Shown: piece after piece, positions 552 through 13,762 of the stretch
How the letters are laid out: each line of letters starts with the position of its first letter
Position numbering within the stretch: position 1 is the stretch's first letter
DNA from: Geobacter metallireducens GS-15
Lineage (GTDB): Bacteria; Desulfobacterota; Desulfuromonadia; Geobacterales; Geobacteraceae
DNA: 13,762 nt
Assembly (NCBI RefSeq): GCF_000012925.1
Contig: NC_007515.1
Coordinates: forward strand, 1 to 13,762
Reading direction: 5' to 3'
The notes under the pieces: generated by a model
The model's input: only the letters and a program-made list of their open reading frames with translations
Databases searched by the model: none
What the model was told of the DNA's origin: nothing
Position numbers and translations under genes: made by a program

Positions 552-603
552 AACGGGGTGGGGCGCCAGCCCCGTTTGCCCCGTTGCATTTTCTGTTTTG
601 ATT
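552..603 (+). terminator. Nested GC-rich hairpin with T-rich tail (terminator-like) in a non-coding region
   Basis: Outer stem AACGGGG (552-558) pairs with CCCCGTT (579-585). It encloses an inner hairpin GGGGC-gcca-GCCCC (560-573). The tail is gcaTTTTcTGTTTTgaTT. No convincing upstream CDS, so it may end an ncRNA. Confidence 0.3.
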
Positions 604-619
604 CGGGGGGTTCCGGAAA

Positions 620-641
620 TTTTCCGTCACTTTTCTCACTG
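620..641. repeat. Degenerate fourth iteron copy (18/22 match)
   Basis: TTTTCCgTCacTTTTCTCACTg compared with the iteron TTTTCCTTCGATTTTCTCACTC. Confidence 0.45.
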
Positions 642-670
642 CTAGGGGGGTTGAAGGGGGTCGATCCTCT

Positions 671-695
671 CCCGAAAAGCGGGGGCGGTTGACCG
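671..695. repeat. Left copy of a 25-bp perfect inverted repeat (partner at 13434-13458)
   Basis: CCCGAAAAGCGGGGGCGGTTGACCG is the exact reverse complement of 13434-13458. Patchy similarity extends into the flanks. Confidence 0.9.
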
Positions 696-760
696 CTTCG
701 CGCTGTTCTCCCCTCCCTGAGAGGGAGGGGCCGGGGGGTGGGTGCTACTTACCCTGGAAG

Positions 761-769
761 TTTTCCACA
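761..769 (+). promoter_or_regulatory. DnaA-box-like 9-mer
   Basis: TTTTCCACA fits the relaxed DnaA box TTWTNCACA. It lies next to an AT-rich patch (about 781-830) and the iterons, the usual layout of iteron origins. Confidence 0.4.
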
Positions 770-866
770 AGTGGGGGTGTCTCTACTAAAAGGCTTTTAA
801 AAAAGCTATAGGCTTATACTATAGGGGAAGCTGTGAAGCCGCATGGTTCAAGGGTTTGATGGGTGG

Positions 867-964
867 TTTTCCTTCGATTTTCTCACTCGGCAACCTAAAT
901 TTTCCTTCGATTTTCTCACTCACGCCCGAAAAAGGAGATAAATTTTCCTTCGATTTTCTCACTC
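867..964. repeat. Three 22-bp direct repeats (iterons), the core of the candidate oriV
   Basis: TTTTCCTTCGATTTTCTCACTC is perfect at 867-888, 900-921 and 943-964. Copies 2 and 3 share an extended 30-mer. Start-to-start spacing is 33 and 43 bp. Copy 3 overlaps the rep stop codon (963-965). Confidence 0.8.
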
Positions 965-2063: not shown

Positions 2064-2066
2064 GAT

Positions 2067-2378
2067 TCACCCCGCTATTGAATAAAGAGTTTTCTTGTTT
2101 TTCAATTGGTCCTCAGTGTAACCCAAAGAAGTTTCAAGGTACGTTTTACCATTTTTACATTTAAAAATGTACGCCTTATGCCCTTCTTCTTCAGCTTCAA
2201 TAATCTCAGTAATAGTGCTTACGCTCATTTCATCATCTTCATTCTGATACCGTGGACTGAATAAACTTACCTTGAAATTATCAAGGGTCCCGGCGGCGTA
2301 TAATACGTCATGAACACTATTCACCATGACACGATTCCAATATGGCCCCTCCTCTTCATGGTTAATAGTGTATTCCAC
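2067..2378 (-). pseudogene. 3' fragment of an IS-disrupted gene (orf140), unknown function
   Basis: The ORF begins only at a GTG inside the target-site duplication. Its frame continues exactly from the fragment at 3678-3812 once the IS and one duplication copy are removed. Confidence 0.7.
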
Positions 2379-2379
2379 T
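2371..2379. repeat. Target-site duplication, left copy (TATTCCACT)
   Basis: An identical 9-mer abuts the other IS end at 3694-3702. Confidence 0.8.
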
Positions 2380-3693
2380 CACTACTGTCCGGTTAATAGT
2401 TGAATAAGTTCAGTTGGTTGCGCTCAGGATAATCAGCATTTCGCTTGAGAGCCTCCGCAACCAGCGATGAAATGGGCTTTTTCTCGAACAAGTTGACCTC
2501 CAGAATCTGTAGAAAAGTGTAGAGCGAACACGGAACCCCCAACTTCTTTTTCGTGATCGCCACCAGCAGATAGATGCACAAGGCAACCCATATCTGGCTC
2601 TTCACGGCATTGACTGACGTTCCGATGAACGACTTGATCCGCAGGTGCTGTTTGATCCATTTGAAAAACAGCTCCACCTGCCAGCGCTGCTTGTAAATCG
2701 CAGCCACCGTCGCTGCCGGAATCTCGAAGTTGTTCGTGAGAAATACGAGTCGCTTGTTCCGTTCTTTGTCAACATAGCTGACCCGGCGCAGTTTCTCCGG
2801 ATACCCCTTTTTCGACTTCTGCGTCACCAGGGTGATAATCTGGTCTGCCCGTACACCTGATTCCTTGTCCTTCGGATGGGAATATAACCGCTGGCATTTC
2901 AGGTTGTCCTTTGCCCGAACTACGAAGAATGCTCCCTGCTTGTGGATGGAGTGGAGCCGGGCAAAATCGACATACCCTCTGTCCATCGTGTAAATGGCAT
3001 CCTTTGCAACCGGCAGATGGTCCAGCATCCTGACATCGTGGACCTTGCCAGTGGTAATAGTGACCCAGGTCGGAATGGGACCACGCAGATCAATGAGCGT
3101 ATGCATCTTGACCGCCGCCTTGGTTTTGCGGAACTCGGCCCATGGGAACAGCGTAAGGCACAGGTCGATAGTGGTCGAGTCAAAGGCGTAGAGCGGTTGC
3201 GTAAGCTCAACGGAGATGGCATCAGCCTGGTACAGCTGCTGAGCTATGCCGATCAGTACATGACCGAAGTCTTGGAAGATACGCCAGTCCCTGCGCTCGT
3301 TCGCGTCGGCAAGGGTCGTGCGGGAGACATCACCACGAAAGCCGATGTGGTACAGCTTCTCCTGGTGGGAGTTCAGGCAGGTCTCGATATCCCGCAAGCT
3401 CTCACGGCCAGCCATCTGGGCATAAGCCAGGCAGAGGAACTGGTCATAGGTCGAGAACTTCTTCTCCCGATACTCGCCACGGTGTCGGCGAACGCAGAGA
3501 TTGAATTCGTACCGGGGCAGAAACTGCAGAAGTTGTTTGAAAACGGTCGGACCGGTGTGCATTGCTCCCCTCCTGTAAAGGGAGGAAGGCTACACTCAGA
3601 ACGAATTCATGTCGAAAAAAGAACAATTGTGCCAAAGAGCAATAAAGTTCAACAAGTTACAGCTGTACAATCAAAGTTTACCGGACAGTAGTA
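2380..3693 (-). mobile_element. IS4-family insertion sequence (1314 bp)
   Basis: Terminal inverted repeats are CACTACTGTCCGGTTAA (left) and TACTACTGTCCGGTAAA (right end, reverse complement), 15/17 matching. There is a single transposase ORF and flanking 9-bp direct repeats. Confidence 0.85.
2393..3562 (-). CDS. IS4-family DDE transposase
   Basis: 389 aa. The C-terminal YKQRWQVELFFKWIK gives the Y-2-R-3-E-6-K signature of IS4-type transposases. DRGY and other DDE-region motifs are present. SD AGGAGGGG lies upstream. Confidence 0.9.
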   Translation of the reverse strand: MHTGPTVFKQLLQFLPRYEFNLCVRRHRGEYREKKFSTYDQFLCLAYAQMAGRESLRDIETCLNSHQEKLYHIGFRGDVSRTTLADANERRDWRIFQDFGHVLIGIAQQLYQADAISVELTQPLYAFDSTTIDLCLTLFPWAEFRKTKAAVKMHTLIDLRGPIPTWVTITTGKVHDVRMLDHLPVAKDAIYTMDRGYVDFARLHSIHKQGAFFVVRAKDNLKCQRLYSHPKDKESGVRADQIITLVTQKSKKGYPEKLRRVSYVDKERNKRLVFLTNNFEIPAATVAAIYKQRWQVELFFKWIKQHLRIKSFIGTSVNAVKSQIWVALCIYLLVAITKKKLGVPCSLYTFLQILEVNLFEKKPISSLVAEALKRNADYPERNQLNLFNY

Positions 3694-3812
3694 TATTCCA
3701 CTATAAAAATATCCATGTTGAGCATAATTCGTACACATTTGTAAGAAGCGGCCCCCGGATTGTCAAAGATGGGTGGAATCGGCACTCTCCATTGCTCATA
3801 GACTTCAAACAT
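3678..3812 (-). pseudogene. 5' fragment of the IS-disrupted gene (orf140)
   Basis: ATG at 3810-3812 has the SD AAGGAG 7 nt upstream. It reads MFEVYEQWRVPIPPIFDNPGAASYKCVRIMLNMDIFIVEY, then runs into the IS end and stops (TAA at 3678-3680). Confidence 0.7.
3694..3702. repeat. Target-site duplication, right copy (TATTCCACT)
   Basis: Identical to 2371-2379 and directly abuts the IS end. Confidence 0.8.
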
Positions 3813-3861
3813 GATCTGTCTCCTTAAAAAGGTATGGGTCTATATGGAGCTTTACCCGCAA

Positions 3862-4071
3862 TCATTCATTTTCGCAATCCCGGTTTCTCAGGTCGGCAAG
3901 ATCACGATGCAAGGTCTGCATCCCGGCGCAACTGGCGGCGGCCTCAAGCCCTAGCATTTTCCCCCATGTGACAAGCCGTAGTTCTTCGGTTGCGGCGTTG
4001 TAGGCTTTTCGGGCCTCTGCGTGGTCGCTGGTAAGATGGGTTATAAAGGTCTGACGCTCTTTGCCGTTCAT
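3862..4071 (-). CDS. Hypothetical 69-aa helical protein, second gene of the rep operon
   Basis: The start overlaps the upstream stop in ATGA (4068-4071), implying translational coupling. No family recognised. Confidence 0.5.
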   Translation of the reverse strand: MNGKERQTFITHLTSDHAEARKAYNAATEELRLVTWGKMLGLEAAASCAGMQTLHRDLADLRNRDCENE

Positions 4072-4409
4072 TGGTTCCCCTCCTTTATGTCCTGGGCAAC
4101 GGCAAAGGCCCGTTTCATCCGTTCCGAAGTGTCCGGACGGCCTGGGCGGATTGTCGTGGTAGGATCATAATTCGCGGCGTTGACGGTAAATTGGACAATG
4201 CCAAGTTCCCGAAGATAAGCAACAAGGGTTTCTATTTTCCGAAATATGCGGACTTTCCCCCCCCTGACGCCTAATGCCCGTTCGGTCATGCCGTACTTAA
4301 AAATGACGCTCCACCCCCCCGGCTGGCCGATTACCTCGGCCCCCCGGATGGCTCCGGCTTCAATGAGCCGTTGCAGGATTGCATAATCTATAGTTTCCGT
4401 ATTTGCCAT
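4068..4409 (-). CDS. Hypothetical 113-aa protein, first gene of the rep operon (possible DNA-binding or regulatory role, inference only)
   Basis: SD GAGG lies upstream of the ATG at 4407-4409, and a promoter-like element lies upstream of that. The sequence (..GGWSVIFKYGMTERALGVRGGKVRIFRKIETLVAYLRELGI..) feels plasmid-typical but I cannot name a family. Confidence 0.6.
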   Translation of the reverse strand: MANTETIDYAILQRLIEAGAIRGAEVIGQPGGWSVIFKYGMTERALGVRGGKVRIFRKIETLVAYLRELGIVQFTVNAANYDPTTTIRPGRPDTSERMKRAFAVAQDIKEGNQ

Positions 4410-4444
4410 TTTGCTTACCTCTGCCGGTCAAATCATTTGCAATG

Positions 4445-4473
4445 TTTATAACAAAATAACAGCAAACGTGCAA
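4445..4473 (-). promoter_or_regulatory. Candidate sigma70 promoter of the rep operon
   Basis: The minus strand reads TTGCAC, 17 nt, TATAAA, about 35 nt upstream of the orf113 start. Confidence 0.35.
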
Positions 4474-4527
4474 GAAAATTGTTTAAATTTTCCCTGTCAA
4501 CTTAACATATCATCCCTTCCAGGACGC

Positions 4528-4552
4528 AAAAAAGGCCGGGGGGTTCCCGGCC
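4528..4552 (-). terminator. Rho-independent terminator of the toxin-antitoxin operon
   Basis: The minus strand reads GGCCGGG-aaccc-CCCGGCC followed by TTTTTT, about 20 nt after the stop at 4575. Confidence 0.65.
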
Positions 4553-4574
4553 TGGGGGTTCTGCGTTTCTTCTC

Positions 4575-4784
4575 TCACTCTTCAAGTTTTTCCCTCAGCC
4601 AGGCTTTACCCTCTTCCTCGGTGAGAAACCCATTATCTAGGGCTTTCTTTGCCCTCTCGCCCCATGGGATAGCCTCCCGGATGAAATCCGCGTCCAGTTC
4701 CGGGGAGTCGGTAAGGTCGATTTCTTCGTCCTTCATGGCCTCGATCCGGGGCCAGTCGGTTCTTGATTCCGGGGTTTTGCTCAT
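4575..4784 (-). CDS. Small acidic protein coupled to relE, with an N-terminal motif like BrnA/DUF4415-type antitoxins
   Basis: 69 aa. The ATG overlaps the relE stop (ATGA at 4781-4784). TDWPRIEAMKDEEIDLTDSPELDADF resembles the TDWxRxxAMxDEEID..PEL motif I associate with DUF4415/BrnA proteins. The usual C-terminal RHH-like part seems absent. Confidence 0.6.
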   Translation of the reverse strand: MSKTPESRTDWPRIEAMKDEEIDLTDSPELDADFIREAIPWGERAKKALDNGFLTEEEGKAWLREKLEE

Positions 4785-5053
4785 CTTTCGTAGACCTCCC
4801 GGCGGTTGCCTACCCTCACAACGAGAATTACTAACGCCTCGTCTTCTATGCTGGTGATGATCCTATAGTCACCTACGCGGTATTTCCAAAAGTCTCCGAA
4901 TCTGGAACCCTTCAGGGCCTCCCCGATACTGCGGGGATCGTCAAGGCGTGCGACACGCTCAAAGAGGAATTTCAAGACCCTCCCGCTTATTTGAGGGTCC
5001 AGCTTCTTTAATTCCCGCCGGGCGGCGGGGTCTATTTCAACTTTCCAGACCAT
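4781..5053 (-). CDS. relE: RelE/ParE-superfamily toxin (RelE/StbE-like)
   Basis: 90 aa. It shows the typical pattern MVWKVEIDPAARRELKKLD..ALKGSRFGDFWKYRVGDYRIITSIEDEALVILVVRVGNRREVY and overlaps the upstream antitoxin gene by 17 nt. Confidence 0.85.
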   Translation of the reverse strand: MVWKVEIDPAARRELKKLDPQISGRVLKFLFERVARLDDPRSIGEALKGSRFGDFWKYRVGDYRIITSIEDEALVILVVRVGNRREVYER

Positions 5054-5261
5054 ATTCTTTCATCACTTCTTCAAGGGGTATGGTTTTGGTTCGTCCGGCC
5101 CTAATGTCTTCAAGGCGCTTCTCGGCCAAGTAAATGTCTTCCAGGTCGTCAAGATATTCAACAAGGGCCTCCCGGACGTAATAGCTTTTGCTCCGGCCGG
5201 TGGCCTTGGCGAGGGAGTCAAGGCGGGTTTCGATTTCCTCGGGCAGTCTGATTGCTAACAT
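5037..5261 (-). CDS. relB: Ribbon-helix-helix antitoxin (RelB/CopG-like)
   Basis: 74 aa. The N-terminal segment MLAIRLPEEIETRLDSLAKATGRSKSYYVREAL is RHH-like. DDLEDIYLAEKRLEDIRAG is typical of RelE-partner antitoxins. SD AGGAGG is present. Confidence 0.8.
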   Translation of the reverse strand: MLAIRLPEEIETRLDSLAKATGRSKSYYVREALVEYLDDLEDIYLAEKRLEDIRAGRTKTIPLEEVMKEYGLES

Positions 5262-5276
5262 GGGCTTGTTCCTCCT

Positions 5277-5296
5277 TTGTTATACACGTATAACAA
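5277..5296. promoter_or_regulatory. Palindromic operator candidate for relBE autoregulation
   Basis: TTGTTATAC-ac-GTATAACAA has perfect 9-bp arms. It sits directly upstream of the relB SD and overlaps -10-like TATA hexamers (minus strand TTGCTC, 17 nt, TATACG). Confidence 0.5.
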
Positions 5297-5320
5297 ATTT
5301 TCCCCAAAAGAGCAAGCCCC

Positions 5321-5809
5321 CTACTTCCGGCCGAAGAGACGGCCGAAAAATCCCCGCTTCGGTTCCTGGGGAGGATCGGGGACCGGTACAGGATCAGCCG
5401 GGGGAGGCTCGGAAGGGTGGGCTTTGTGTTCCAGGAGCCGGTGAGCGGTGGCAAGCTGTCCGGTCAATTCATCGACTTTCCCTTGTAGCCAGGTTTCCCG
5501 CTTGTCGGCGGCCTTGATGGCCTCGCGTAGTGCTTCAACTTCGGCCTGTAAAGCCGCGTTTTTTATGTCATTTTCCCGTGTCATATTTTGTAAAGCATGA
5601 ATGTCGCTTGACGGGTCGGGCGTTGACTGGCCTTTAGGGCCGGGCAAACGGCCGTTGAATACCCTCATCAGTTCGGCGGTGTCAATACACGGCTTTTCGT
5701 TTTCGTCTTTTTTCACCGTTAAAACGCCGGGTTTTATGTATTTGGTGTAAAGGTATTGACGACTTATCCCGGCAAGCCGGGCGGCCTCTGTAATCGTGAC
5801 ATTTGCCAT
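5321..5809 (-). CDS. HTH DNA-binding protein with coiled-coil and a proline-rich basic tail
   Basis: The preferred start is MANVTITEAARLAGISRQYLY.. (ATG at 5807-5809, SD AGGGGG), giving 162 aa. The N-terminal HTH is excisionase/MerR-like. The central segment is heptad-like and the tail reads PPPADPVPVPDPPQEPKRGFFGRLFGRK. Confidence 0.65.
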   Translation of the reverse strand: MANVTITEAARLAGISRQYLYTKYIKPGVLTVKKDENEKPCIDTAELMRVFNGRLPGPKGQSTPDPSSDIHALQNMTRENDIKNAALQAEVEALREAIKAADKRETWLQGKVDELTGQLATAHRLLEHKAHPSEPPPADPVPVPDPPQEPKRGFFGRLFGRK

Positions 5810-5884
5810 ATCAAGCCCCCTGTCATAACTTGTTAAGTGTTTACCATGAGGCTGTAAACCTAGCATTTGACAGGCAAAAAGGCA

Positions 5885-5919
5885 ACGGAAACGAGAAAGG
5901 GCCGGGGGTTTCCCGGCCC
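5885..5919 (-). terminator. Terminator-like hairpin ending the trbL-trbJ-lipoprotein transcript
   Basis: The minus strand reads GGGCCGGG-aaacc-CCCGGCCC followed by TTTCTCGTTTCCGTT, an interrupted T tract. It is homologous to the terminator at 4528-4552. Confidence 0.45.
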
Positions 5920-5968
5920 TTCTGGGGGTACTGCCAGCCCGGCAAAGCTCCGTTGCCGTGTCTACCCA

Positions 5969-6000
5969 GTTTCAATCCTCGCCCTTGTGGGGCGCTCCGG
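5969..6000 (-). CRISPR. Solitary CRISPR-repeat-like element (type I-C-like), single copy, no array
   Basis: The minus strand reads CCGGAGCGCCCCACAAGGGCGAGGATTGAAAC. The recalled I-C repeat is GTCGCGCCCCGCACGGGCGCGTGGATTGAAAC. Ungapped identity is 22/32, and the last 10 nt are identical. A 5-bp GC stem with a 5-nt loop ends exactly 11 nt from the 3' end, as in I-C repeats. Confidence 0.4.
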
Positions 6001-6010
6001 CCTGGGCCGG

Positions 6011-6196
6011 TTACTTCTTTCCTTTGTAGTAGTCCAGCATGTTTTTTTCCGGTCCCGCCTTCGGGAGTTCCCCTTTCTTGAGGGCCTTTGCCGGTTGGCC
6101 GTCCGCCGTGTAACCCTCGGGGGCCTTGTTGCACCCTGCAACCAACATCGCCCCCATAACAACTACAACCAGCCCCATAATAACTTGTTTTTTCAT
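6011..6196 (-). CDS. Small lipoprotein (61 aa), TrbK-like position, candidate entry-exclusion protein
   Basis: MKKQVIMGLVVVVMGAMLVAGC carries the lipobox LVAGC. SD AGGAGGG is present. Only the last 61 codons of the 176-aa track ORF are credible. Small lipoproteins next to trbJ are typically entry-exclusion factors such as RP4 TrbK. Confidence 0.7.
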   Translation of the reverse strand: MKKQVIMGLVVVVMGAMLVAGCNKAPEGYTADGQPAKALKKGELPKAGPEKNMLDYYKGKK

Positions 6197-6236
6197 AGCT
6201 TTTCCCTCCTTTGTGGTTGTGACCGATTCCGGCCGG

Positions 6237-6956
6237 TTATTTTTTCTTCCTGAGATAGTCGAGCATGTTTCTATCGTCCCCCTTTGGTAAGTCCCCTTTC
6301 TTGAGGGGCTTTGCCTTTTCGGCGGCCTGGGCGGCCATGTAGGACGATTGTTCACGGGCACTTGTTGCCATGATCTGCTGTAGCTGGATGAGTTGTTGCG
6401 CCACCATTGCCGAAATCTGGTTGCCCGCCTGGGCGGCGGCAAGCTGGCCGTCTGCGCTGTTGGAAGCGGCGACAAGGGCGTTGAGGGCGTCTTGATCGGT
6501 AGCGGCGTTGCTGATAAGGCCCTGGGCCAACATGGCGTCACGGACGGAGTTTTGAAGCTGCTGGTTTGCCTTGGCGGCCTGGGCGGCGTAGTCCTTCCCG
6601 CTCATGCCGTTGTAGGCGGCCATGTCCGGGTAATACTGGTCAAAAGCCCCCTCCGTGCGGCCGTAATCGTAAGTAATGCCCCTGGTCTTCTGCTGGATTT
6701 CGGCAAGCTGCCGAATGCCGTTCATGATCCGGCCGCGTATCTGGTCGCTGTTGAGTTGCCGGGCCTGTCGTATGGCAACTTCAAGTTGCTGGTATTGAGT
6801 GGCTAGTTGCTCGGCGGTGTTGATGGCCGTGGCTACCTGCTGCACGTAGCTAAACAGGTTCTGTGCCCAGTTGGTGTAATCGAGCACCGGGATTGTTGCA
6901 TGAGCCTGGGCGGACATGCTCAGGATCAGGACGGTGACAATAAGTGCTTTTTTCAT
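6237..6956 (-). CDS. trbJ: P-type conjugative transfer protein TrbJ (VirB5-like)
   Basis: The preferred start is MKKALIVTVLILSMSAQAHA (signal peptide, SD AGGAGG, ATG at 6954-6956), giving 239 aa. IPVLDYTNWAQNLFSYVQQ and the Q-rich helical body are TrbJ-like. Confidence 0.8.
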   Translation of the reverse strand: MKKALIVTVLILSMSAQAHATIPVLDYTNWAQNLFSYVQQVATAINTAEQLATQYQQLEVAIRQARQLNSDQIRGRIMNGIRQLAEIQQKTRGITYDYGRTEGAFDQYYPDMAAYNGMSGKDYAAQAAKANQQLQNSVRDAMLAQGLISNAATDQDALNALVAASNSADGQLAAAQAGNQISAMVAQQLIQLQQIMATSAREQSSYMAAQAAEKAKPLKKGDLPKGDDRNMLDYLRKKK

Positions 6957-6974
6957 GGTTTGTTCCTCCTTTGC

Positions 6975-7034
6975 CCCCCATATCTTGTATCCTGGTCGGC
7001 TGGATCGTCCGGGCCTCGGCACAAGATATGGGGG
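6975..7034 (-). repeat. 14-bp perfect inverted repeat (stem-loop) in the trbL-trbJ intergenic region
   Basis: CCCCCATATCTTGT (6975-6988) pairs with ACAAGATATGGGGG (7021-7034) around a 32-nt loop. In the mRNA the stem ends 4 nt upstream of the trbJ SD. No U tract follows it. Confidence 0.85.
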
Positions 7035-7042
7035 TTACGTTG

Positions 7043-8494
7043 TTAATCGACGTGGAGCCGGACCCCTGCCCCGCCTCCGGCGCTGGCGTCCTGGGGAACT
7101 GCTCTTTGGCTCTGCTGCCATGCGTCTTGTAGGCTGCTCCGGCGGGGTTGGCCCTTACCGTTCCCCCCTCCGCTTCCGACGTTGGACCCTTGCAAGCTGC
7201 TGGTGCCTCCGCCGGTCCCCGTGGTCGGCGCTGGTTCGGTCTTCCCGGCATCGGTTGCGGTGGTGTCTGCGCTGCCAGTCGCCGGGGGTGTGGCGTCTGT
7301 GGTTGTAGCGGTGGTGTCTGCTGCCGGTGCCGGTGTGGGGGTGGCCTCAGTCTTCCCGGTGTCTGCTGCTCCTTTGGCTGCTGCATCGGCGGCCGGTTTA
7401 AGGCTGCTGCCTCCCGATGCCGGTTTGATCCCTCCGGCGCTCCCGGCTTCGGCGGCTGAAATGGCCCCGCTCTTGGCGGCCTGGAACGCGGACGCTCCGG
7501 GCATTGCTCCTGCTGCGGCTCGGGCAACGTTGCCAAGGAAAGAGCCGTTCCCGGCTGCTGCTGCGGCCTTGGCTCCGGCGAGGCCTCCGGCTACTGCTGC
7601 CCCTCCGGTTGCCATACCAGCGGCGGCCATGGCTGGTGCTGCTGCCCCTGCGGCGGCACTCAAGGCGGTACCGGCGGCGGCTCCGGCGGACAGGGAAGGG
7701 GACCCGGAAAGGACGGCGGAAGCCACACCGGGGGCCTGGGCAACCACAAAGGCAATAACGGCCACCGTTACACCTAATGTCATCATTTGATTAAACGTTG
7801 GATCAGGCCCAAGAGCCGGGAGAGCCAAAAGGACCGGCTGGATCACCGCCACCACGAATGACAAAACCATTAACTTGATCCCGAAGGCGATTATTGCGCC
7901 GATGGCCTTTTCCGACAAAAACGCGGTGTGCTTACTGATTCCGAAGGGGAGAAGGATGATACCAAGGGTGGAAACGATGCCAAATTCGATGAAGGTAATC
8001 ATTATCTGACACGCCATGACGACATAAGCCAGAATCACAATTAGATAACAGCCGTAAGCCATGAGCCTGTCACCGATTGCAGTTATAGCCATGTGTTGTA
8101 TAGCGTCATAGATTGGATCAGCAGCCAGAAAGCCCGCCGAAATCAAGGACGAAGGGTTTTTCATGGAAAAGGATACCCCCGCCCCTCCGGCCTTCAAACC
8201 TACCGCAATAAAGCCGTCAAGGATGATTTCAGCGAGGCCGGAACGGGCGACCCCTTGAACCAGAAAAATGAAAAAACCGATGGTGAGGATCTTTTTAACC
8301 AATGGGGGGATTATGTTGTCTTCCCCCCCCTTCAGGGCATGAAATGCCCCCAAGAGGACCATTTCGATTACTGCCAGGGCTCCGGCAATATACATGGCCC
8401 ATGACAGCAAGGCCCCTTTGCCGGTCCCAAAAACGGAGTTAAAGGTTTCAAGTACCTGGGTGAGAATTTGAACATCTGGGGTTGCGGTTGCCAT
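7043..8494 (-). CDS. trbL: P-type conjugative transfer protein TrbL (VirB6-like)
   Basis: The preferred start is MATATPDVQ (ATG at 8492-8494, SD AGGAG), giving 483 aa. It is a polytopic membrane protein with a long Ala/Gly/Thr/Pro-rich C-terminal tail, as is typical of TrbL. Confidence 0.8.
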   Translation of the reverse strand: MATATPDVQILTQVLETFNSVFGTGKGALLSWAMYIAGALAVIEMVLLGAFHALKGGEDNIIPPLVKKILTIGFFIFLVQGVARSGLAEIILDGFIAVGLKAGGAGVSFSMKNPSSLISAGFLAADPIYDAIQHMAITAIGDRLMAYGCYLIVILAYVVMACQIMITFIEFGIVSTLGIILLPFGISKHTAFLSEKAIGAIIAFGIKLMVLSFVVAVIQPVLLALPALGPDPTFNQMMTLGVTVAVIAFVVAQAPGVASAVLSGSPSLSAGAAAGTALSAAAGAAAPAMAAAGMATGGAAVAGGLAGAKAAAAAGNGSFLGNVARAAAGAMPGASAFQAAKSGAISAAEAGSAGGIKPASGGSSLKPAADAAAKGAADTGKTEATPTPAPAADTTATTTDATPPATGSADTTATDAGKTEPAPTTGTGGGTSSLQGSNVGSGGGNGKGQPRRSSLQDAWQQSQRAVPQDASAGGGAGVRLHVD

Positions 8495-8571
8495 GGTGAC
8501 TCCTTTCTTTTCGGCAGAGTGCCTTATTTGGCTATACCGAAAATGCACGAAAAACCCAAATTACAGCCTGT

Positions 8572-10803
8572 TTAGCGGTCCATGCCCTTCCCACGGTCAA
8601 TATCCTTTTGCACCCGGTTAATCTGCTGCTGAATGTCTTTGACGATCTGGCGTCGGTCCCGTGGATCGGTGCCGGGTTCCAGCTTATAGGCCCGGTCTTT
8701 CTTCGGGTCGGCGGCAAGGGTCTTTTCGATCTTCTTCAGGTCTGCCCGGTAGGCCCTGGCCTCTCTGGTTTCCTGGTCAACCGCGTTGATTTTGGCCTCT
8801 TCCGCCTGTACCTGCTTTTGCACTTCAGGCCGTTCCAGGTAGCTATGGAGCCGGGCCGTGTTGACTTCGTTTGTGGCGAGTCGTGCGGTAAGCTCTTCTC
8901 TATTAATGGTTGATACTTTGCCACCGGCCATGTCGGTTGCGAGTTTCAGGGCTTCGGCGTCCAGGTCTGTCCGCTCTTTCTTGATTGCCTCGGAAATGCC
9001 TTTAGTGGCGGTCTGCTCTGCTACCCTTCGGGCGTCGGTTTTGCCGTCGATCTGGCCTTTTTCGGCAAGCCATTTTTCGCCCTGGTCGATCTTGGCCGTA
9101 ATGATCTTGATTTCATCCCGGATTTCCGGGAGGAGCTCCCGGCCCTTGATCTGCTGGCCGATGCCCTGAGCCTTCTTCAGTTCGGCAATGTAGGGCTGTA
9201 GCTCTTTATTCGTTATCTCGATGCCAAGTTTCACGGCTTCGGCTGCTGCGAGGCGCTTCCAGGCCGTCGAGCCGGTAAGCTCAAAGGATCGGCCGAATTT
9301 CTCTTGACTCAGGAGGAGCCCCGCCTTGATCGCGGCCGGGTCGTTCTTCGAGTGGCCCAAAAAGAGGAGTTGACGGCCGGTGTCCCGGTAGGCTTCGGCC
9401 CCGCTCTTGTCCAGGAAAGAGACGTTGCCGTGTCTCGATACCTTGATTTCAAGGTCTTTCAGGGTAGTAAGCGGGGTTTTCTTTGCGGCCTCTTCTTCTC
9501 CTGTGGTGCCGGGCTCCGGGGCTTCAACTTCCAGGCGGTTCTTTTTCTGCCGTAGCATGTAGATAGCCGCTTCGTTGCCCTTGTTGGCCCGTTCGACAAG
9601 GTACTTGTCCCACCCCTTCTTAGCCTCGCCAAATTCGCCAAGGGCGGCCCGTTTCTCTGCGGCCCTGTCTTCTATCTCGGCTTTGCGCCGGGCGGCTCCA
9701 AGGTTGATTGCGGCCCTCTGGGCTCGTTTCTCGATGCCCGGAAGGTCCGATTCCTTCAGGGCCTTTACCTGCTCTTTCTTCCATTCGATAATCTCTTTTC
9801 TTCCGGCCGTGAGTTCGGCGGTTATGGCCTTGCGCTCCTCGGCGTGGTGCTTCCATTCCTCCTGATAATCCTTAAATTCCCGGTAAAGCTGCTTTTGCTC
9901 GGGCTCCACTGCAATCATCTTTTCCGTGTCGCTTTTGTAGTCGATCACGGGGGCAAGGTCTTTGACTCTGGCGGTCGGTTCCTGGTACGGGCCTAATGCT
10001 TTTTCCAGCCGTCCGCGTGATAGTTGCCGGGCGATTTCTGACGCCTTCGCGTGGTACTGATCCGGGTCGTTTCGGTCTACGATCACAAGGCCCTGATTCT
10101 TAGGATCAGGCCGGATATCCAGGTTATATTTTGCTGCTGCCCGGTGTAGATCGTCCCACGATCCGTCGGCGAGAGCGGCGGTTAAATCCTTCCCGGCCCG
10201 TTCCTTGGCCCACGTCTTAAAGCTCTTCTCCCCGGTTTCAATTTCCCGCCTTCTATTGCCCTGGTCCAGGGAAAACGGGCGGTCTGGATCATGGGACTTT
10301 TTGACGATTTCCCCCTTGTCATTAATCATATAGCTGCCGTTGTCACGCTCGAAACCATGTTGTAATTCCATCTCCCGGCAAGCCTTGTCGAGCTTCATTC
10401 GGTCCTTGTCGATGGGCCGGACATGACCCGTCCGGTAGTCAATCCGGTTGATACAAATGTGCAAATGATAGTTATCAGTGTCACGGTGGAAACCGGCCAC
10501 GGCCTGTAAATCTTCCATGCCTAATGCCTTTAAGGCATGGTCAAAACATGCCTCTATTTCTTCTCTGGTCGGCTTCTCTCCCTCCCGCCACGAAAACCCG
10601 AAATGATAGGCGGCATGGGCGCTCTTCCCGGTCGATTCGACAAACTCCATTTCTTCAATGGCGGTGTTAATGTCGTCAACATTCCGGGTCAATTCGTATT
10701 CGACTTTTTCGTGTGGCTCAAAGTCTTTCCCAAGGCCACGAATGTATTTGATCGTAGCGGAAAAGCTACGACCGCCGGGGGCGTCCCATACTCTGCTAAT
10801 CAT
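8572..10803 (-). CDS. Conjugative relaxase (relaxase/mobilisation nuclease domain, RP4 TraI / MOBP-like)
   Basis: The preferred start is MISRVWD (ATG at 10801-10803, overlapping the mobC stop), giving 743 aa. Tyr20 lies in ATIKYIRG. The histidine triad motif is HRDTDNYHLHICINRI (RP4 TraI has HTDTDNLHIHIAINKI). The middle is a long coiled-coil, and the C-terminal segment resembles relaxase-associated domains. Confidence 0.9.
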   Translation of the reverse strand: MISRVWDAPGGRSFSATIKYIRGLGKDFEPHEKVEYELTRNVDDINTAIEEMEFVESTGKSAHAAYHFGFSWREGEKPTREEIEACFDHALKALGMEDLQAVAGFHRDTDNYHLHICINRIDYRTGHVRPIDKDRMKLDKACREMELQHGFERDNGSYMINDKGEIVKKSHDPDRPFSLDQGNRRREIETGEKSFKTWAKERAGKDLTAALADGSWDDLHRAAAKYNLDIRPDPKNQGLVIVDRNDPDQYHAKASEIARQLSRGRLEKALGPYQEPTARVKDLAPVIDYKSDTEKMIAVEPEQKQLYREFKDYQEEWKHHAEERKAITAELTAGRKEIIEWKKEQVKALKESDLPGIEKRAQRAAINLGAARRKAEIEDRAAEKRAALGEFGEAKKGWDKYLVERANKGNEAAIYMLRQKKNRLEVEAPEPGTTGEEEAAKKTPLTTLKDLEIKVSRHGNVSFLDKSGAEAYRDTGRQLLFLGHSKNDPAAIKAGLLLSQEKFGRSFELTGSTAWKRLAAAEAVKLGIEITNKELQPYIAELKKAQGIGQQIKGRELLPEIRDEIKIITAKIDQGEKWLAEKGQIDGKTDARRVAEQTATKGISEAIKKERTDLDAEALKLATDMAGGKVSTINREELTARLATNEVNTARLHSYLERPEVQKQVQAEEAKINAVDQETREARAYRADLKKIEKTLAADPKKDRAYKLEPGTDPRDRRQIVKDIQQQINRVQKDIDRGKGMDR

Positions 10804-11176
10804 CTTCGGCCCCCTCTTCTGCGGCAAATTGCCGCTGAATTGCCACGGCTGCCCGGCGGATTTCGTCCAGGGCAATATCAATATTCCCTAGGTTTTTTTG
10901 GGCCTCCTCGGGGGTGATTTCCTTACGGGTCATGAGGTATTTTTGCAAGCCGCCGAAGCGGCGAAGCTCACCCACTGCCCGGCGTAGATCGGCTACGGCG
11001 GCAATGGTCGTCTTGCTCGGCGTAGCCCGTCCATCGAGACAACGGCGGGCGAGTTCTCCGACAGATACCCCGGAGGCCGTGGCCTTGGCTGTGTAGCGGG
11101 AAAGGTCCTCGGCGGTAACTCTGATATGGATCATTTCACTTTTATTCCGGCGTTCGCTTCCTGACTTAGCTTTCAT
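10796..11176 (-). CDS. mobC: MobC/TraJ-like relaxosome accessory protein (RHH)
   Basis: 126 aa. IHIRVTAEDLSRYTAKATASGVSVGELARRCL is the usual MobC-type RHH segment. It lies directly upstream of and overlaps the relaxase gene. SD AGGAG is present. Confidence 0.7.
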   Translation of the reverse strand: MKAKSGSERRNKSEMIHIRVTAEDLSRYTAKATASGVSVGELARRCLDGRATPSKTTIAAVADLRRAVGELRRFGGLQKYLMTRKEITPEEAQKNLGNIDIALDEIRRAAVAIQRQFAAEEGAEDD

Positions 11177-11308
11177 GGTGTGGCTCCTTTCTCCCTGCGC
11201 CTAGCAGGGACGGCCAAGGGCCGTTAAGGGGTTCGGGTCCGGGGCGTAAGCCCTGGCAGGACAGCTAGGGATATTGCGACGCCCGAAGGGCCAGGAGCAA
11301 ATCCCGGT

Positions 11309-11351
11309 GTATCGACCGCTATTTATAGCGGAGATACAAGCGCTATCCTGT
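11309..11351 (+). other. Candidate oriT core: imperfect inverted repeat plus nick-site-like TATCCTG/T
   Basis: The inverted repeat is GTATC-ga-CCGCTAT-tt-ATAGCGG-a-GATAC (11309-11337). Then comes aagcgc, TATCCTG (11344-11350), then T. This matches the MOBP nic consensus YATCCTG/Y. It lies in the mobC-upstream intergenic region, next to an AT-rich stretch. Confidence 0.5.
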
Positions 11352-11354
11352 CTT

Positions 11355-11382
11355 CTTATACTCTTATTATATTTAGATGCAA
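11355..11382 (-). promoter_or_regulatory. Candidate promoter of the mobC-relaxase operon, overlapping oriT
   Basis: The minus strand reads TTGCAT, 16 nt, TATAAG, firing toward mobC. Confidence 0.3.
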
Positions 11383-11627
11383 TATAAATGCCGACGCGAG
11401 GCGGAAACCCTTATTTCTTCGTTTACCCGCCGGGCTGGGTGTCATGGTGTGATATCATATATACAGTTTCAAGCCCTTAACAGTTGCGGTTTCACAGATT
11501 GCTATATGCAACATGATGTCACTTTGTAAGACAAAATGACGCCATGTTTTATGGCCGTTTTTATGCCGACACGGCACAGATAGTGCAAATATTCAATGTA
11601 AGACACGATAACAACAGGGGGTGCAAC

Positions 11628-12224
11628 ATGGGAAATGACAAAAATACAGCTAAAACGCTGAAAATCAGTAAGTCAAAAAGCGGACAGAGTGACGAAAAAC
11701 CGACATATTCAGTTGACAAAATGCGTCAATGGTTGAATGACAACGCAAGTGACACAACGCCGGATAAAACGCCTACAATTTGGGATAGACTCATAGAAAT
11801 CAAAGACGATATTGCAGCCGTCTACCCTTCCAAGATGAGCGCCGATAAAGTGGTGAAGGGGCTTAAAGACAATGGTCTTGATATTACAAAGACAACGTTC
11901 CTGACGTACTGGCAATTAATCAAGGCGGGGCATACTACACGGCCATCGACCAGCAAGAAAAAACAGCCGGTTTCTGAGCCTGAAAATTCCGGAAAAAATG
12001 AATCTGGTTTTGATGAAAACCCGGCTCCGGTTTCTGAGGAAAAAACGGGCGAGGATTTGAAAAATTCTGAAGGGGAAAAAGAAACCTACCCTTGCCCTAA
12101 GTGCAAACGTATTTTGACAGTTATGAGAGAGACAAAACCCGGCGTTCATCTGGGGCAAAAATACATTAGTTGCGATGCCGACACCGGGGGGTGTGGGTAT
12201 TTCTCATATGACGACGGGAAATAA
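11628..12224 (+). CDS. Hypothetical protein with a C-terminal topoisomerase-type C4 zinc ribbon (orfA)
   Basis: The preferred start is MGNDKNTAK (ATG at 11628, SD GGGGG), giving 198 aa. The C-terminus CPKC-x22-CDADTGGC resembles the Topo I/III C4 zinc finger. The middle is low-complexity and acidic. An HTH-like segment SADKVVKGLKDNGLDITKTTFLTYW is present. Confidence 0.65.
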   Translation: MGNDKNTAKTLKISKSKSGQSDEKPTYSVDKMRQWLNDNASDTTPDKTPTIWDRLIEIKDDIAAVYPSKMSADKVVKGLKDNGLDITKTTFLTYWQLIKAGHTTRPSTSKKKQPVSEPENSGKNESGFDENPAPVSEEKTGEDLKNSEGEKETYPCPKCKRILTVMRETKPGVHLGQKYISCDADTGGCGYFSYDDGK

Positions 12225-12303
12225 AAAACCCCTGCCATAAATGACAGGGGCCATGAATCAAGGCGGGCGCTCTTTGGACGGAAAACCCGCCTCAATCTCA
12301 CAG
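12223..12303 (-). ncRNA. Candidate small RNA encoded by module copy 1 (hypothetical)
   Basis: The minus strand reads TGGTATAAA (extended -10-like, 12308-12316). The transcript would then be CCACUGUGAG.., a stem-loop, and a canonical terminator hairpin plus U6. The 5' end is a guess. Confidence 0.25.
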
Positions 12304-12334
12304 TGGTTTTATACCACGGGAAGGATGGAAAAAA
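12223..12334. repeat. Structured intergenic module, copy 1
   Basis: A6, then hairpin CCCCTGCCATaAATGACAGGGG (12229-12250). A second hairpin GGCGGG..CCCGCC spans 12262-12291. The conserved box is CTCACAGTGG-ttt-TATACCAC (12297-12317), followed by a purine-rich SD. It is homologous to 12966-13084. Confidence 0.85.
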
Positions 12335-12967
12335 ATGAAAAAAGAGTCTCCAAAACATGAACTGAAGTCGTTAAAGGATCTTCTCGACTTTGTGAGAGAC
12401 TACCCGGAATTTATGGATGAAATCACGACAGCCATGCCAAAAGCAACCGCGTTGCCCGGCAGCAATCAATCAGACTTCATACAACCGATAATGCCCCACA
12501 TTGTCAGGTTGAAAATTTGGGGAATGTCAGACAACTCTATACGTCAGCTTATTGATTTTGAAGGGCCATTTTATTTTGATCCTCGCGGCTTCGGCAAAGT
12601 GCTTCATACAGCAATAAAAAAATATGCGCGTTCTGTTCGTTATGAAATTGCCGAAGAAGTAGGAAAAATAATTCGTGAATCCGGCGGTGACGACGGCCAT
12701 TTAACAGAGACGTACATGGATGAAGCTATCCATCTTTTCGACAAGTGGCGTTTCCCAGAAGATCAAGGCTATGAAAATGTCACTGATTACGAATTCGGCG
12801 AGGCTATTCTTTGGGCCATGCGGGGTTTTGATCCATCTCTTTATTTCCGTCGTGTGACTGCTCAAGTCCTGGGCCGGAAGATGGTAAAGCGGCTCAAGCT
12901 CCTTTATGAAATTGACTTTGACAGTAACGAGACTCATCCGGCCGAACCCGCCCACAAGGCGGCATAA
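12335..12967 (+). CDS. Hypothetical 210-aa protein (orfB)
   Basis: Clean ORF with SD GGAAGGA. No family recognised. Confidence 0.7.
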   Translation: MKKESPKHELKSLKDLLDFVRDYPEFMDEITTAMPKATALPGSNQSDFIQPIMPHIVRLKIWGMSDNSIRQLIDFEGPFYFDPRGFGKVLHTAIKKYARSVRYEIAEEVGKIIRESGGDDGHLTETYMDEAIHLFDKWRFPEDQGYENVTDYEFGEAILWAMRGFDPSLYFRRVTAQVLGRKMVKRLKLLYEIDFDSNETHPAEPAHKAA

Positions 12968-13052
12968 AAAAACCCCTGCCATGAATGACAGGGGCCGTGG
13001 ATCGCGGCGGGGTGCCCTCGGTGAAACACCGTCCCCGCCTTAACTCTCACAG
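12966..13052 (-). ncRNA. Candidate small RNA encoded by module copy 2 (hypothetical)
   Basis: Same architecture as copy 1 on the minus strand: TGGTATAGC, stem-loop, terminator hairpin plus U7. The 5' end is a guess. Confidence 0.2.
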
Positions 13053-13084
13053 TGGAGCTATACCACAGAAAGGAAGGAAAAACC
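12966..13084. repeat. Structured intergenic module, copy 2
   Basis: A7, then hairpin CCCCTGCCATgAATGACAGGGG (12973-12994). A second hairpin GGCGGGG..CCCCGCC spans 13006-13039. The box is CTCACAGTGG-agc-TATACCAC (13046-13066), followed by an SD. Confidence 0.85.
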
Positions 13085-13333
13085 ATGGCCGCACAACGTT
13101 TTTTTGAGATTGGATCACGGGGGTTTGTTGTTAATTTCCGCATTATGTGCCGGGGAGGGTTCCAGGCCCATTGTCAGGACGTGCCACACCGGGCGAAGGG
13201 GACCACGATTGACGGGGCGTTTTCGGCGTTCCTGGAAACTCTCCCGGATGCCTGGGTGGATGGTGTAATAGACTCTCTGCCGGTCCAGGATCAACGACAA
13301 GTGCGGTTGTGGCGTCAGGATGAGGCGGCGTAG
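13085..13333 (+). CDS. Hypothetical 82-aa protein (orfC)
   Basis: The preferred start is MAAQRFFEIG (ATG at 13085, SD AAGGAAGG). There is a faint resemblance to the HicB/UPF0150-like fold (GGFQAHCQDVPHRAKGTTIDGAFSAFLETL), but it is not reliable. Confidence 0.55.
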   Translation: MAAQRFFEIGSRGFVVNFRIMCRGGFQAHCQDVPHRAKGTTIDGAFSAFLETLPDAWVDGVIDSLPVQDQRQVRLWRQDEAA

Positions 13334-13377
13334 AAGGGCGAACGTCCTAAAATCGGTTTTGAGCGGTTTTCAGGTCA

Positions 13378-13408
13378 AGGGGATAGGCAACTATCCCCTT
13401 TTCTTTTT
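13378..13408 (+). terminator. Rho-independent terminator of the orfA-orfB-orfC operon
   Basis: AGGGGATA-ggcaac-TATCCCCT followed by TTTCTTTTT. Confidence 0.7.
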
Positions 13409-13433
13409 GGACGCAACAGCGGCCCGACAGGGC

Positions 13434-13458
13434 CGGTCAACCGCCCCCGCTTTTCGGG
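13434..13458. repeat. Right copy of the 25-bp perfect inverted repeat (partner at 671-695)
   Basis: CGGTCAACCGCCCCCGCTTTTCGGG is the exact reverse complement of 671-695. Confidence 0.9.
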
Positions 13459-13571
13459 GTTGCCGTCGGCAATCCCCCCTTTCAACAACTCGCCTTTCCG
13501 GGGTCTGGTTTCTGTATCGTACCAGACAGAAAAGTAAGTAAAAAGTCAAGGTCGCAAGGGATTTCAACGGG

Positions 13572-13673
13572 TTAGCGTTTTCGGGGCTTCTTCGTGGCGT
13601 GGAGCAGGTAAAGGCCGGTGCCGATGATCCCGGCCAAGTAGATCAACAGGGACAAGGTACTTGTTTCGATCAT
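13572..13673 (-). CDS. Small (33 aa) single-pass membrane peptide, last gene of an operon entering from the right
   Basis: MIETSTLSLLIYLAGIIGTGLYLLHATKKPRKR. The ATG overlaps the stop of the upstream partial ORF (ATGA at 13670-13673). It is below the ORF-track size cutoff. Confidence 0.4.
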   Translation of the reverse strand: MIETSTLSLLIYLAGIIGTGLYLLHATKKPRKR

Positions 13674-13762
13674 GGCGTTTGCCCTCCCACGGCGACGTAA
13701 AAGGCCCCGATTGCCTCGGCTATCTTCTCGGCCTGGGCCTTTAGTTCCGGATTTCCCTGCAC
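13670..13762 (-). CDS. 3' end of an unidentified CDS (partial, runs off the right edge)
   Basis: An open frame runs from the window edge (..VQGNPELKAQAEKIAEAIGAFYVAVGGQTP*) and is coupled to the downstream peptide. Confidence 0.4.
   Translation of the reverse strand: MQGNPELKAQAEKIAEAIGAFYVAVGGQTP

Follow-up and report, generated by a model that had tools for sequence, protein, structure and literature searches.

The stretch of DNA considered here, referred to as the window, is the 13,762-nt sequence of contig NC_007515.1 (positions 1-13,762) of Geobacter metallireducens GS-15. Its interval 11351-13408 carries three genes, orfA, orfB, and orfC, and probably represents the leader operon of a small MOBP mobilisable plasmid, a counterpart of stbABC (R388/R46) and of traKLM (RP4). 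The arrangement is best described as a variant of these operons in which (i) the first gene combines a helix-turn-helix (HTH) domain, a linker, and a zinc ribbon, (ii) StbB is absent, (iii) a one-gene slot is bounded by a structured element, and (iv) a small third gene is fixed. The initial annotation recognised none of the three products as a transfer or maintenance function, a statement not supported for orfA, the N-terminal domain of which is of StbA type by hhalign, PDB profile search, reciprocal hidden Markov model (HMM) matches, and Foldseek. The former "unknown operon" would thus be a recognisable module. Its parts are listed below, with relatives of the replicon cited by locus handle (L008, L009, and so on).

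11308-11338, plus strand: oriT inverted repeat, a 6+6 bp hairpin 5' of the nick motif (DNA fold -10.6 kcal/mol, z -3.70), near-identical in L008
11344-11351, plus strand: MOBP nick motif TATCCTG/T, the sole YATCCTGY in the window
11628-12224, plus strand: orfA, 198 aa, with StbA-type HTH, acidic linker, and C4 zinc ribbon
11766-11936, plus strand: predicted StbA-type HTH domain of orfA (aa 47-103), assigned by profile-profile and fold comparison with StbA
within orfA, plus strand: acidic low-complexity linker (aa ~111-150)
12081-12200, plus strand: C4 zinc ribbon of orfA (aa ~152-191), with sub-threshold Lar and GRF matches
12335-12967, plus strand: orfB, 210 aa, an ORFan occupying a variable slot
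13085-13333, plus strand: orfC, 82 aa, a conserved small protein
13377-13408, plus strand: intrinsic terminator of the plus-strand unit, a 10-bp stem followed by TTCTTTTT (hairpin and T-run at 13377-13400), conserved after orfC in L009, L010, L011, and L012

All three genes lie on the plus strand just 3' of the nick motif, opposite to the NikA-like gene and the MOBP relaxase gene. The first of them starts 277 nt beyond the predicted nick, its start being taken as the ATG that follows GGGGG, and each is preceded by a purine-rich Shine-Dalgarno (SD) sequence 6-10 nt upstream. The identical trio occurs in the same order on at least 23 contigs read and in the ~75%-identical relative L008/L009, against which the ratio of nonsynonymous to synonymous substitution rates (dN/dS) is 0.24 for orfA, 0.20 for orfB, and 0.13 for orfC. 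Because these values fall in the range of the backbone genes nikA, relaxase, and trbL (0.16-0.30), the three are regarded as real genes, and by the same ratios they are under purifying selection. The three co-oriented genes with strong SD sequences that the initial annotation described are therefore present and conserved in order. Its terminator is likewise found at 13377-13400, but the hairpins after orfA and orfB are terminator-like on the minus strand only, and that orfA, orfB, and orfC are co-transcribed as an operon is something we infer.

The link between orfA and StbA is invisible to the family libraries. Scans of Pfam, NCBIfam, and PHROGs return only weak zinc-ribbon matches for orfA, and its relatives in the protein database form just three clusters. 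StbA has no Pfam family according to a Pfam lookup and to the StbA paper itself (bioRxiv 10.1101/2022.04.29.490116), which leaves library scans blind to the orfA HTH. A PDB profile search aligns orfA aa 49-102 with residues 17-70 of StbA (7pc1) at E 0.0021, including the segment "lkdnGLditlkTFRtYW" against "lnanGFdvnlnTFRsYL". For profile-profile comparison, an alignment was made of seven StbA proteins from plasmids with the annotated layout relaxosome genes, oriT, stbA-stbB-stbC, namely the R388-type pAN70-1, plasmids of Xanthomonas, Pseudomonas, and Moraxella, Agrobacterium pAt3, pYKBG020, and R46. Against this alignment, hhalign matches the orfA N-domain family with Prob 97.3% and E 2.6e-11 over 57 columns (47-103 against 14-70), which correspond exactly to the HTH domain, and the HMMs of the two families find each other in reciprocal local matches of 20-34 bits. 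The AlphaFold2 (AF2) model of orfA reaches a predicted local distance difference test (pLDDT) score of ~85 for residues 50-100 only, which form a four-helix bundle; 7pc1 is its Foldseek match of highest probability in the PDB (0.89, TMt 0.66). It is the profile-profile comparison that decides the link, and on its strength the N-domain of orfA is an StbA-type DNA-binding HTH domain homologous to StbA residues 1-75.

The C4 ribbon at aa ~152-191 agrees with the zinc ribbon that the initial annotation ascribed to orfA. It matches Lar_restr_allev (PF14354) at 22.3 bits in isolation and at 18 bits in the full protein, against a cut-off of 28.6, and also the GRF (sub-threshold) and Zn_ribbon_16 models. 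Among the relatives, the ribbon of P0004 matches the recombinase (Zn_ribbon_recom) and GRF ribbon models, P0005 carries two ribbons, the second of which is a significant Zn_ribbon_Top1 match (43 bits against a cut-off of 32), and the orfA relatives of L008 and L014 carry yet other ribbons. Topo/GRF-type ribbons (PF01396, PF06839) are single-strand DNA binding modules. The family as a whole (L009 13-612, L010 315-1058, L011 215-817, L014 280-783, and L040 223-843, in addition to the window) is modular, with two HTH types and at least four unrelated zinc ribbons distributed across a shared acidic linker, and its N-domain is conserved while the C-terminal part varies among relatives. Since the ribbons differ among relatives and L040 pairs an L014-type HTH with an L008-type ribbon, N-domain and ribbon reassort across the linker. 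The HTH type tracks the type of oriT: type 1 accompanies the window-type inverted repeat, and type 2 accompanies the AACTATCCGGAGGATAGTT repeat (L013, L040).

MOBP nick sites follow the consensus (C/T)ATCCTG(C/T), preceded on the 5' side by an inverted repeat, and nicking creates the 5' end to which the relaxase becomes joined (PMC3772185). The nick at TATCCTG/T on the plus strand put forward in the initial annotation accords with these rules, in that the motif is unique, the hairpin 5' of it is stable (z -3.7), and the relaxase is of the MOBP type. A predicted nick between 11350 and 11351, 12 nt from the hairpin base at 11338, is thus well supported, and the plus strand from 11351 onward would enter the recipient first. 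The stretch to the right of nikA is GC-rich and non-coding and contains the oriT hairpin. The window and the ~75%-identical L008 are nearly identical from nikA to the nick motif and diverge sharply a few bases beyond it, as would be expected of an oriT recognition region. The positional reasoning of the initial annotation, by which the three genes come first after the nick, is accordingly sound, with conservation collapsing just past the motif. Two further features lie between the nick and orfA.

11366-11394, minus strand: candidate sigma-70-like promoter TCGGCA-17-TATAAT, with 10/12 consensus matches (a consensus match only)
11573-11586, plus strand: conserved GGCAC-N6-TGC motif, 42 nt before the orfA ATG and the only match in the window

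The candidate promoter is the best sigma-70-like one in the region; it sits just right of the predicted nick and is aimed leftward across oriT at nikA and the relaxase gene, an arrangement known from RP4-type oriTs. The GGCAC-N6-TGC motif is invariant in four diverged relatives (window 11573-11586 on the plus strand, L008 6532-6545, L010 260-273, and L011 172-185) while its flanks diverge. It could be a sigma-54 -24/-12 promoter (GG-N10-GC) and fits a GCAC-N5-GTGC palindromic operator equally well. In L008, the stretch between oriT and orfA also holds a tandem repeat of 2 x 89 bp (6325-6502), each copy with GATGATATCACTTGCAACAC, which has no equivalent in the window.

The stbABC operon of R388 and many MOBF/MOBP plasmids comprises three genes that adjoin oriT, diverge from the MOB genes, and enter the recipient first (PMC3098194). 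StbA is poorly conserved and related to TraK (RP4), MobC (pTF-FC2), and TraD (NAH7), with StbA and TraK_RP4 linked by iterative PSI-BLAST and found in the same position; StbB, a ParA-like ATPase (ParA/Soj/MinD type, with a Walker A motif that may be deviant), is the most conserved stb gene product, StbC is an orphan, and deletion of stbA destabilises the plasmid and increases transfer 50-fold (PMC3098194). The N-domain of StbA binds the stbDR repeats and represses transcription, while segregation and positioning depend on its C-terminal half, which is not conserved (bioRxiv 10.1101/2022.04.29.490116). The stbDR are arrays of 9-bp direct repeats, spaced by 2, around the promoter of stbA itself, and StbA proteins measure 135-175 aa.

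The window shares several traits with stbABC of R388 and R46/pKM101. Its three co-oriented genes adjoin oriT on the first-transferred side, read in the sense of the transferred strand, and diverge from the relaxosome genes, a three-gene layout also seen in R46, pAN70-1, and the Xanthomonas, Pseudomonas, Moraxella, and Agrobacterium plasmids. The first gene encodes a homologous HTH domain and, partly as in stbA, a conserved N-domain followed by a variable C-terminal part. Unlike in stbABC, there is no StbB ATPase, orfC is unrelated to StbC, the C-terminus of orfA is a zinc ribbon behind an acidic linker (198 aa against 135-175 aa), an stbDR-like 9-bp repeat array is lacking, and in the middle position a variable slot sits between structured repeats. 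The relaxase of R388 is also of the MOBF type, whereas that of the window is MOBP. The leader operon traK-traL-traM of RP4 shares the MOBP relaxase, the YATCCTG/Y nick, the 5' inverted repeat, and an operon that runs away from oriT and enters first. Its first gene likewise encodes an oriT-region DNA-binding protein, which the literature groups with StbA (TraK itself was not compared directly). A homologue of the ParA-like TraL is absent from the window, though it is present in more distant relatives. Relaxase-based scans retrieve only relatives at 33-37% identity (L030, L036, and others, from metagenomes and metagenome-assembled genomes), and in the same place these carry a small gene, a Walker-A StbB/TraL-like gene, and a gene for a small membrane protein. 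The small gene is assigned to the StbA/TraK position by its location only (hhalign against the 126-aa protein of L030, E 0.14). Because these relatives keep the canonical layout, the arrangement in the window looks derived.

In the proposed scheme, transcription of orfA-orfC would run away from oriT, divergent from nikA and the relaxase gene, and orfA would act as StbA does, binding sites in the oriT-orfA spacer and repressing its own promoter. It may help plasmid positioning and stability and tune transfer, the ribbon supplying a second contact with nucleic acid or a partner in place of the non-conserved C-terminal half of StbA. The occupants of the slot would be exchanged by recombination inside the elements, which would carry a minus-strand terminator, the ribosome binding site (RBS) for the gene that follows, and perhaps the gene of a short antisense RNA, and orfC would be a fixed small partner. 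With the transferred strand as the sense strand, expression of the genes would have to await synthesis of the complementary strand. Three departures set this module apart from the classical operon, namely HTH domains recombined with different ribbons, loss of the ParA-like partner, and a variable slot delimited by a structured spacer.

The middle gene is an ORFan. Its product is predicted to be all-helical, soluble, and mildly acidic (pI 5.7), and its sole relative is P0002 (76%), whether 5.8e9 proteins are searched by word index or 1.84e9 representatives exhaustively with HMMER. It has no match in Pfam, NCBIfam, PHROGs, PADLOC, a PDB sequence search, or tblastn against PLSDB, and neither its AF2 model (pLDDT 48) nor Foldseek (best E 1.7) is informative. 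The orfC product falls into 7 clusters at 65-100% identity, all inside this plasmid family, and has no match in Pfam, NCBIfam, PHROGs, PADLOC, a PDB profile search, or PLSDB. A guess that it has a HicB-like fold was discarded after a negative hhalign comparison with a HicB-like protein. Of the HMM and structure searches proposed in the initial annotation, those for orfA lead to StbA, and the profile and family searches for orfB and orfC lead to no known family. Alignment of orfB with the StbB family by hhalign is negative (Prob 0.2%), as are those of orfB and orfC with StbC.

The proposed synteny check for a variable cargo slot next to oriT does reveal one. The slot holds orfB in the window and L008, and in L011 it encodes an unrelated protein of 171 aa for which membrane helices are predicted; in L010, L014/L013, and L040 it is empty, and a single element copy joins orfA to orfC. 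In every relative, orfC directly follows an element copy. The copy in L014 combines stretches of both window copies as a mosaic, which points to exchange of the slot by recombination within the elements. Element and orfC also occur on a different backbone in L012 (1-6022), near a 789-aa N6_Mtase/Eco57I-type (type IIG-like) gene and a MerR-like gene, and no orfA-like open reading frame (ORF) is visible in the 230 nt upstream. The elements that border the slot in the window are the following.

12222-12334, unstranded: element copy E1, from the orfA stop codon to the orfB ATG, a direct repeat of E2 with three hairpins
12227-12252, minus strand: E1 minus-strand terminator, first hairpin and T-run
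12966-13084, unstranded: element copy E2, from the orfB stop codon to the orfC ATG, with the same architecture as E1
12971-12996, minus strand: E2 minus-strand terminator

The element is a conserved unit of ~115 nt and contains the RBS for the gene that follows. Between stop codon and ATG, an alignment of ten distinct copies, drawn from six plasmid types, has a mean column identity of 83%. A covariance model (R1) finds exactly E1 and E2 in the window and no further copies in any fetched locus. Exact-pattern scans of GTDB genomes, JGI metagenomes, and IMG/VR retrieve none, and Rfam contains no family for the element (a HepC_CRE match at E 0.027 is spurious). The architecture recalls integron cassettes, in which a single gene is likewise swapped between conserved, repeated, structured sites. 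Here, however, each repeat precedes its gene and contains the RBS, and no integrase family was found among the genes called or scanned (Pfam labels and ten window proteins, not every ORF), so the idea of an integron cassette was set aside; mosaic elements such as that of L014 instead argue for homologous exchange rather than cassette integration. A role as an Frpo- or ssi-type single-stranded DNA (ssDNA) promoter was also rejected, as a long hairpin is lacking and the two strands are nearly alike as DNA.

Several properties differ between the strands of the element at the RNA level. In the four copies folded, the minus strand yields -47.3 (E1), -47.1 (E2), -52.8, and -45.2 kcal/mol with z-scores of -2.5 to -5.45 (E1 -5.45), and the plus strand yields -36.1 (E1), -38.8 (E2), -38.8, and -32.0 kcal/mol with z-scores of -1.3 to -2.6 (E1 -2.59). 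The consensus fold of RNAalifold follows the same trend (-37.0 minus against -28.2 plus), a difference that is due to G.U pairs. Only on the minus strand does a six-pair, G.U-rich helix enclose the second hairpin, and in all copies the T-run after the first hairpin is on the minus strand only. At one position of the terminator stem, seven copies have a minus-strand U.G pair that becomes a C.A mismatch on the plus strand; the minus-strand pair there is U-A in two further copies and C-G in the last. These features slightly favour a predicted minus-strand RNA of ~80-110 nt, antisense to the orfB and orfC leaders. Such an RNA would resemble FinP (against traJ) and CopA/Sok in lying opposite 5' leaders, in forming stable stem-loops followed by an intrinsic terminator, and in pair changes that proceed via G.U; it differs in being predicted from sequence, in having no Rfam match, and in belonging to an element that is duplicated as the border of a gene slot. 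Minus-strand transcripts could also arise by read-through from the convergent small genes past orfC, since no minus-strand terminator lies between these genes and 12996. If real, the RNA would be a new plasmid antisense regulator.

A competing view, which has perhaps one chance in three, regards the elements as features of the plus-strand mRNA only, with no minus-strand RNA. Behind each cistron the element would then stabilise the 3' end or work as a partial attenuator, ahead of the next one it would form a structured 5' leader that carries the RBS, and its role as a slot border would be a by-product of homology. Consistent with this view, conservation spans exactly the interval from stop to start codon, SD included, and the plus strand too folds better than shuffles. 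A search for a minus-strand promoter inside the element returns only TGGTATA followed by two variable bases, a sequence that lacks both a T at -7 and a -35, and the promoter scan called no site there. Excess synonymous conservation is absent from the first 30 codons of orfC, and covariation statistics for the element are not above shuffles. Against it stand the greater stability of the minus-strand RNA, by 8-14 kcal/mol in all four folded copies, and the RNAalifold difference, the U.G/U-A/C-G pair, the G.U-rich helix, and the T-run described above. A bolder proposal is that the elements are at once genes for short minus-strand RNAs and recombination borders of a one-gene swap slot, so that StbB would have been replaced by RNA-controlled exchangeable cargo whose occupants provide new establishment or anti-defence functions. 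The minus strand is the polarity that RNA polymerase would make from the incoming transferred strand, but taken as a whole this proposal is decidedly improbable.

Several observations weigh against an stb-type leader operon. StbB, the defining and most conserved stb gene product, is missing: its HMM matches nothing in the window, and neither Pfam nor NCBIfam assigns orfB to a family. The link of orfA to StbA covers a ~57-residue HTH domain only, the Foldseek match to 7pc1 has an E-value of 0.49 and is not significant (the domain being small), a single-sequence hhalign comparison of the orfA-family profile with R46 StbA is weak (E 0.14), and tblastn of orfA against PLSDB gives no match. An R388-like array of 9-bp direct repeats was sought upstream of orfA (11340-11640) and not found, the region containing scattered two-copy motifs and the GGCAC-N6-TGC motif. 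The plasmid also carries a separate ParC-like gene, so that nothing requires orfA a priori to act in segregation. An alternative is that orfA is mainly a TraK-type protein of relaxosome and oriT architecture that wraps oriT for nicking in the donor, with orfB and orfC as donor-side transfer helpers rather than maintenance genes. The PSI-BLAST connection between StbA and TraK_RP4 and their common position speak for it, as do the co-variation of HTH type with oriT type among relatives and the ribbon, because a Topo/GRF-type, ssDNA-binding module would suit a protein at a melted oriT. The co-variation may, however, be plain linkage, orfB is dispensable in relatives, and the StbA that was matched is of the R388 type, for which the tested roles are segregation and repression. 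This alternative is given about a quarter of the weight. A match to a relaxosome or partition component had been named in the initial annotation as grounds against its own proposal, and such a match is found in part, as StbA acts in segregation and in the control of conjugation and is a relative of the oriT binder TraK. That orfB and orfC form a toxin-antitoxin (TA) or other addiction module unrelated to transfer is highly improbable. The two are small, adjacent, and co-oriented on a plasmid that also carries a RelE/ParE-ribbon-helix-helix (RHH) pair, but neither matches a TA family, orfC is HicB-negative by hhalign, and the genes stand 117 nt apart with no overlap or tight coupling. The presence/absence pattern led to rejection of the pair: L010, L014, and L040 have orfC but no orfB, and in L011 an unrelated gene takes the place of orfB.

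The initial annotation had proposed from position that the three genes are candidates for anti-defence and establishment functions. In known leading-region anti-defence genes, the transferred strand is the template, which permits expression from ssDNA, and conjugation is considerably less efficient when an anti-CRISPR gene is placed on the complementary strand than when it is placed on the transferred strand of the leading region (PMC11541004). Likewise, stbABC of R46 reads away from oriT, and the ardA, ardB, and ccg genes further on read toward it. In the window, nick motif and orfA, orfB, and orfC share the plus strand, an orientation that is stbABC-like and opposite to that of ardA, psiB, and ssb; because the transferred strand is the sense strand, the genes cannot be transcribed from incoming ssDNA. 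An Frpo/ssi-like ssDNA promoter upstream was not found (the fold of the oriT-orfA spacer as ssDNA has a z-score of -0.62), and the elements offer only stems of 4-10 bp with no duplexed -35/-10. ArdA, ArdB/KlcA, PsiB, SSB, methyltransferase, and defence families give no match to orfA-orfC in Pfam, NCBIfam, PHROGs, PADLOC, or the PDB, nor to orfB in the exhaustive HMMER search, with no dedicated anti-defence library included. The step from leading region to anti-defence is therefore not supported by orientation, fold, or homology.

Early establishment or anti-defence genes (anti-restriction, anti-CRISPR, or SOS inhibition), or in a weaker form orfB alone as exchangeable cargo, are accordingly a rather unlikely reading of the interval. 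It draws on the position of the genes as the first past the predicted nick, on the presence, absence, or replacement of the ORFan orfB in its slot, which is typical of arms-race cargo, on the sub-threshold Lar_restr_allev match of the orfA ribbon, and on the type IIG-like methyltransferase/endonuclease gene near the element and orfC in L012. Against these stand the points just given, the composition of orfB, which with its pI is not an obvious DNA mimic, and the ribbons themselves, as that of the window also matches generic GRF and those of relatives match Zn_ribbon_recom and Zn_ribbon_Top1. Compared with leading-region anti-defence islands (ArdA, ArdB/KlcA, PsiB, SSB, Acr; Samuel and Burstein 2024), the interval thus shares the location in the first kilobases after oriT and the presence of an uncharacterised variable gene, but has the opposite orientation to the transferred strand, no Frpo-like promoter, and no homology to any member. 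An anti-defence function is not supported for orfA and has no evidence in its favour for orfB or orfC; the variability of the slot that holds orfB is the only feature that still favours cargo of this kind. The case calls for caution in predicting anti-defence genes from position only, as the first genes after oriT are often stb-type and read with the transferred strand. Because stb-type genes are not expressed from ssDNA, orientation relative to the nick should be checked before candidates are called.

An stb-type leader operon remains the preferred reading. The window is a complete small circular plasmid plus one insertion sequence (IS), since the NCBI copy of the same replicon without the IS (L001) measures 12,448 bp. 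The IS, an IS4/IS5-type transposase gene at 2393-3562 on the minus strand with its flanks, explains the 1,314-bp excess over that copy. Portions of the replicon were found on dozens of Logan contigs, and PLSDB contains no near match to either the IS or the oriT/orfA-orfC region; the best match of RepA, at 40%, is on a Pelobacter plasmid. The StbA/TraK-type leader operon would extend to a family of small MOBP plasmids that PLSDB, GTDB representatives, and JGI metagenomes barely sample. The minus strand encodes RepA_C, the IS4/5-type transposase, a ParC-like protein, the RelE/ParE-RHH pair, an HTH protein, a TrbJ-like protein, TrbL, the relaxase, and the NikA-like protein, of which the last two flank oriT.

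8572-10881, minus strand: MOBP relaxase gene, TraI/MobA(P) (NF041893 TraI_MobP_relax, 5.5e-91; Pfam Relaxase, TraI_middle, LPD7)
10796-11176, minus strand: NikA-like (RHH) relaxosome accessory gene (PF21983 NikA-like, 1.3e-13; weak NCBIfam MobA and TraJ matches)

As a coupling protein is absent, the plasmid needs a helper for mobilisation. The only mating-pair-formation genes are those of the TrbJ-like protein and TrbL (6237-8548, minus strand), and the tail of TrbL is long and rich in Ala, Gly, Thr, and Pro. A single sub-threshold match to Rfam CRISPR-DR9 (5969-5998, minus strand; 36.7 bits against a gathering score of 45), with no array, falls in the non-coding DNA that separates the HTH gene from the TrbJ-like gene.

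Beyond the terminator of the plus-strand unit, the non-coding stretch after orfC contains the 18-bp sequence CTGTATCGTACCAGACAG at 13512-13529, the exact reverse complement of which is found in L009 (~1944-1961) and L011 (~2087-2104), as a small inversion between CTGT/ACAG arms. Further on, a gene for a 33-aa hydrophobic peptide (13572-13673, minus strand) overlaps an ORF of ~62 aa that runs from 13670-13762 and continues at 1-96 (minus strand) across the window junction. No family was found for either product. Both ORFs aim toward oriT, so that the transferred strand would be their template, and L010 carries a HicB-like antitoxin gene (PF15919, 6.1e-08) in their position. The likely start of the relaxase gene is the ATG at about 10803, and the length of the relaxase varies among copies (769, 767, and 743 aa).

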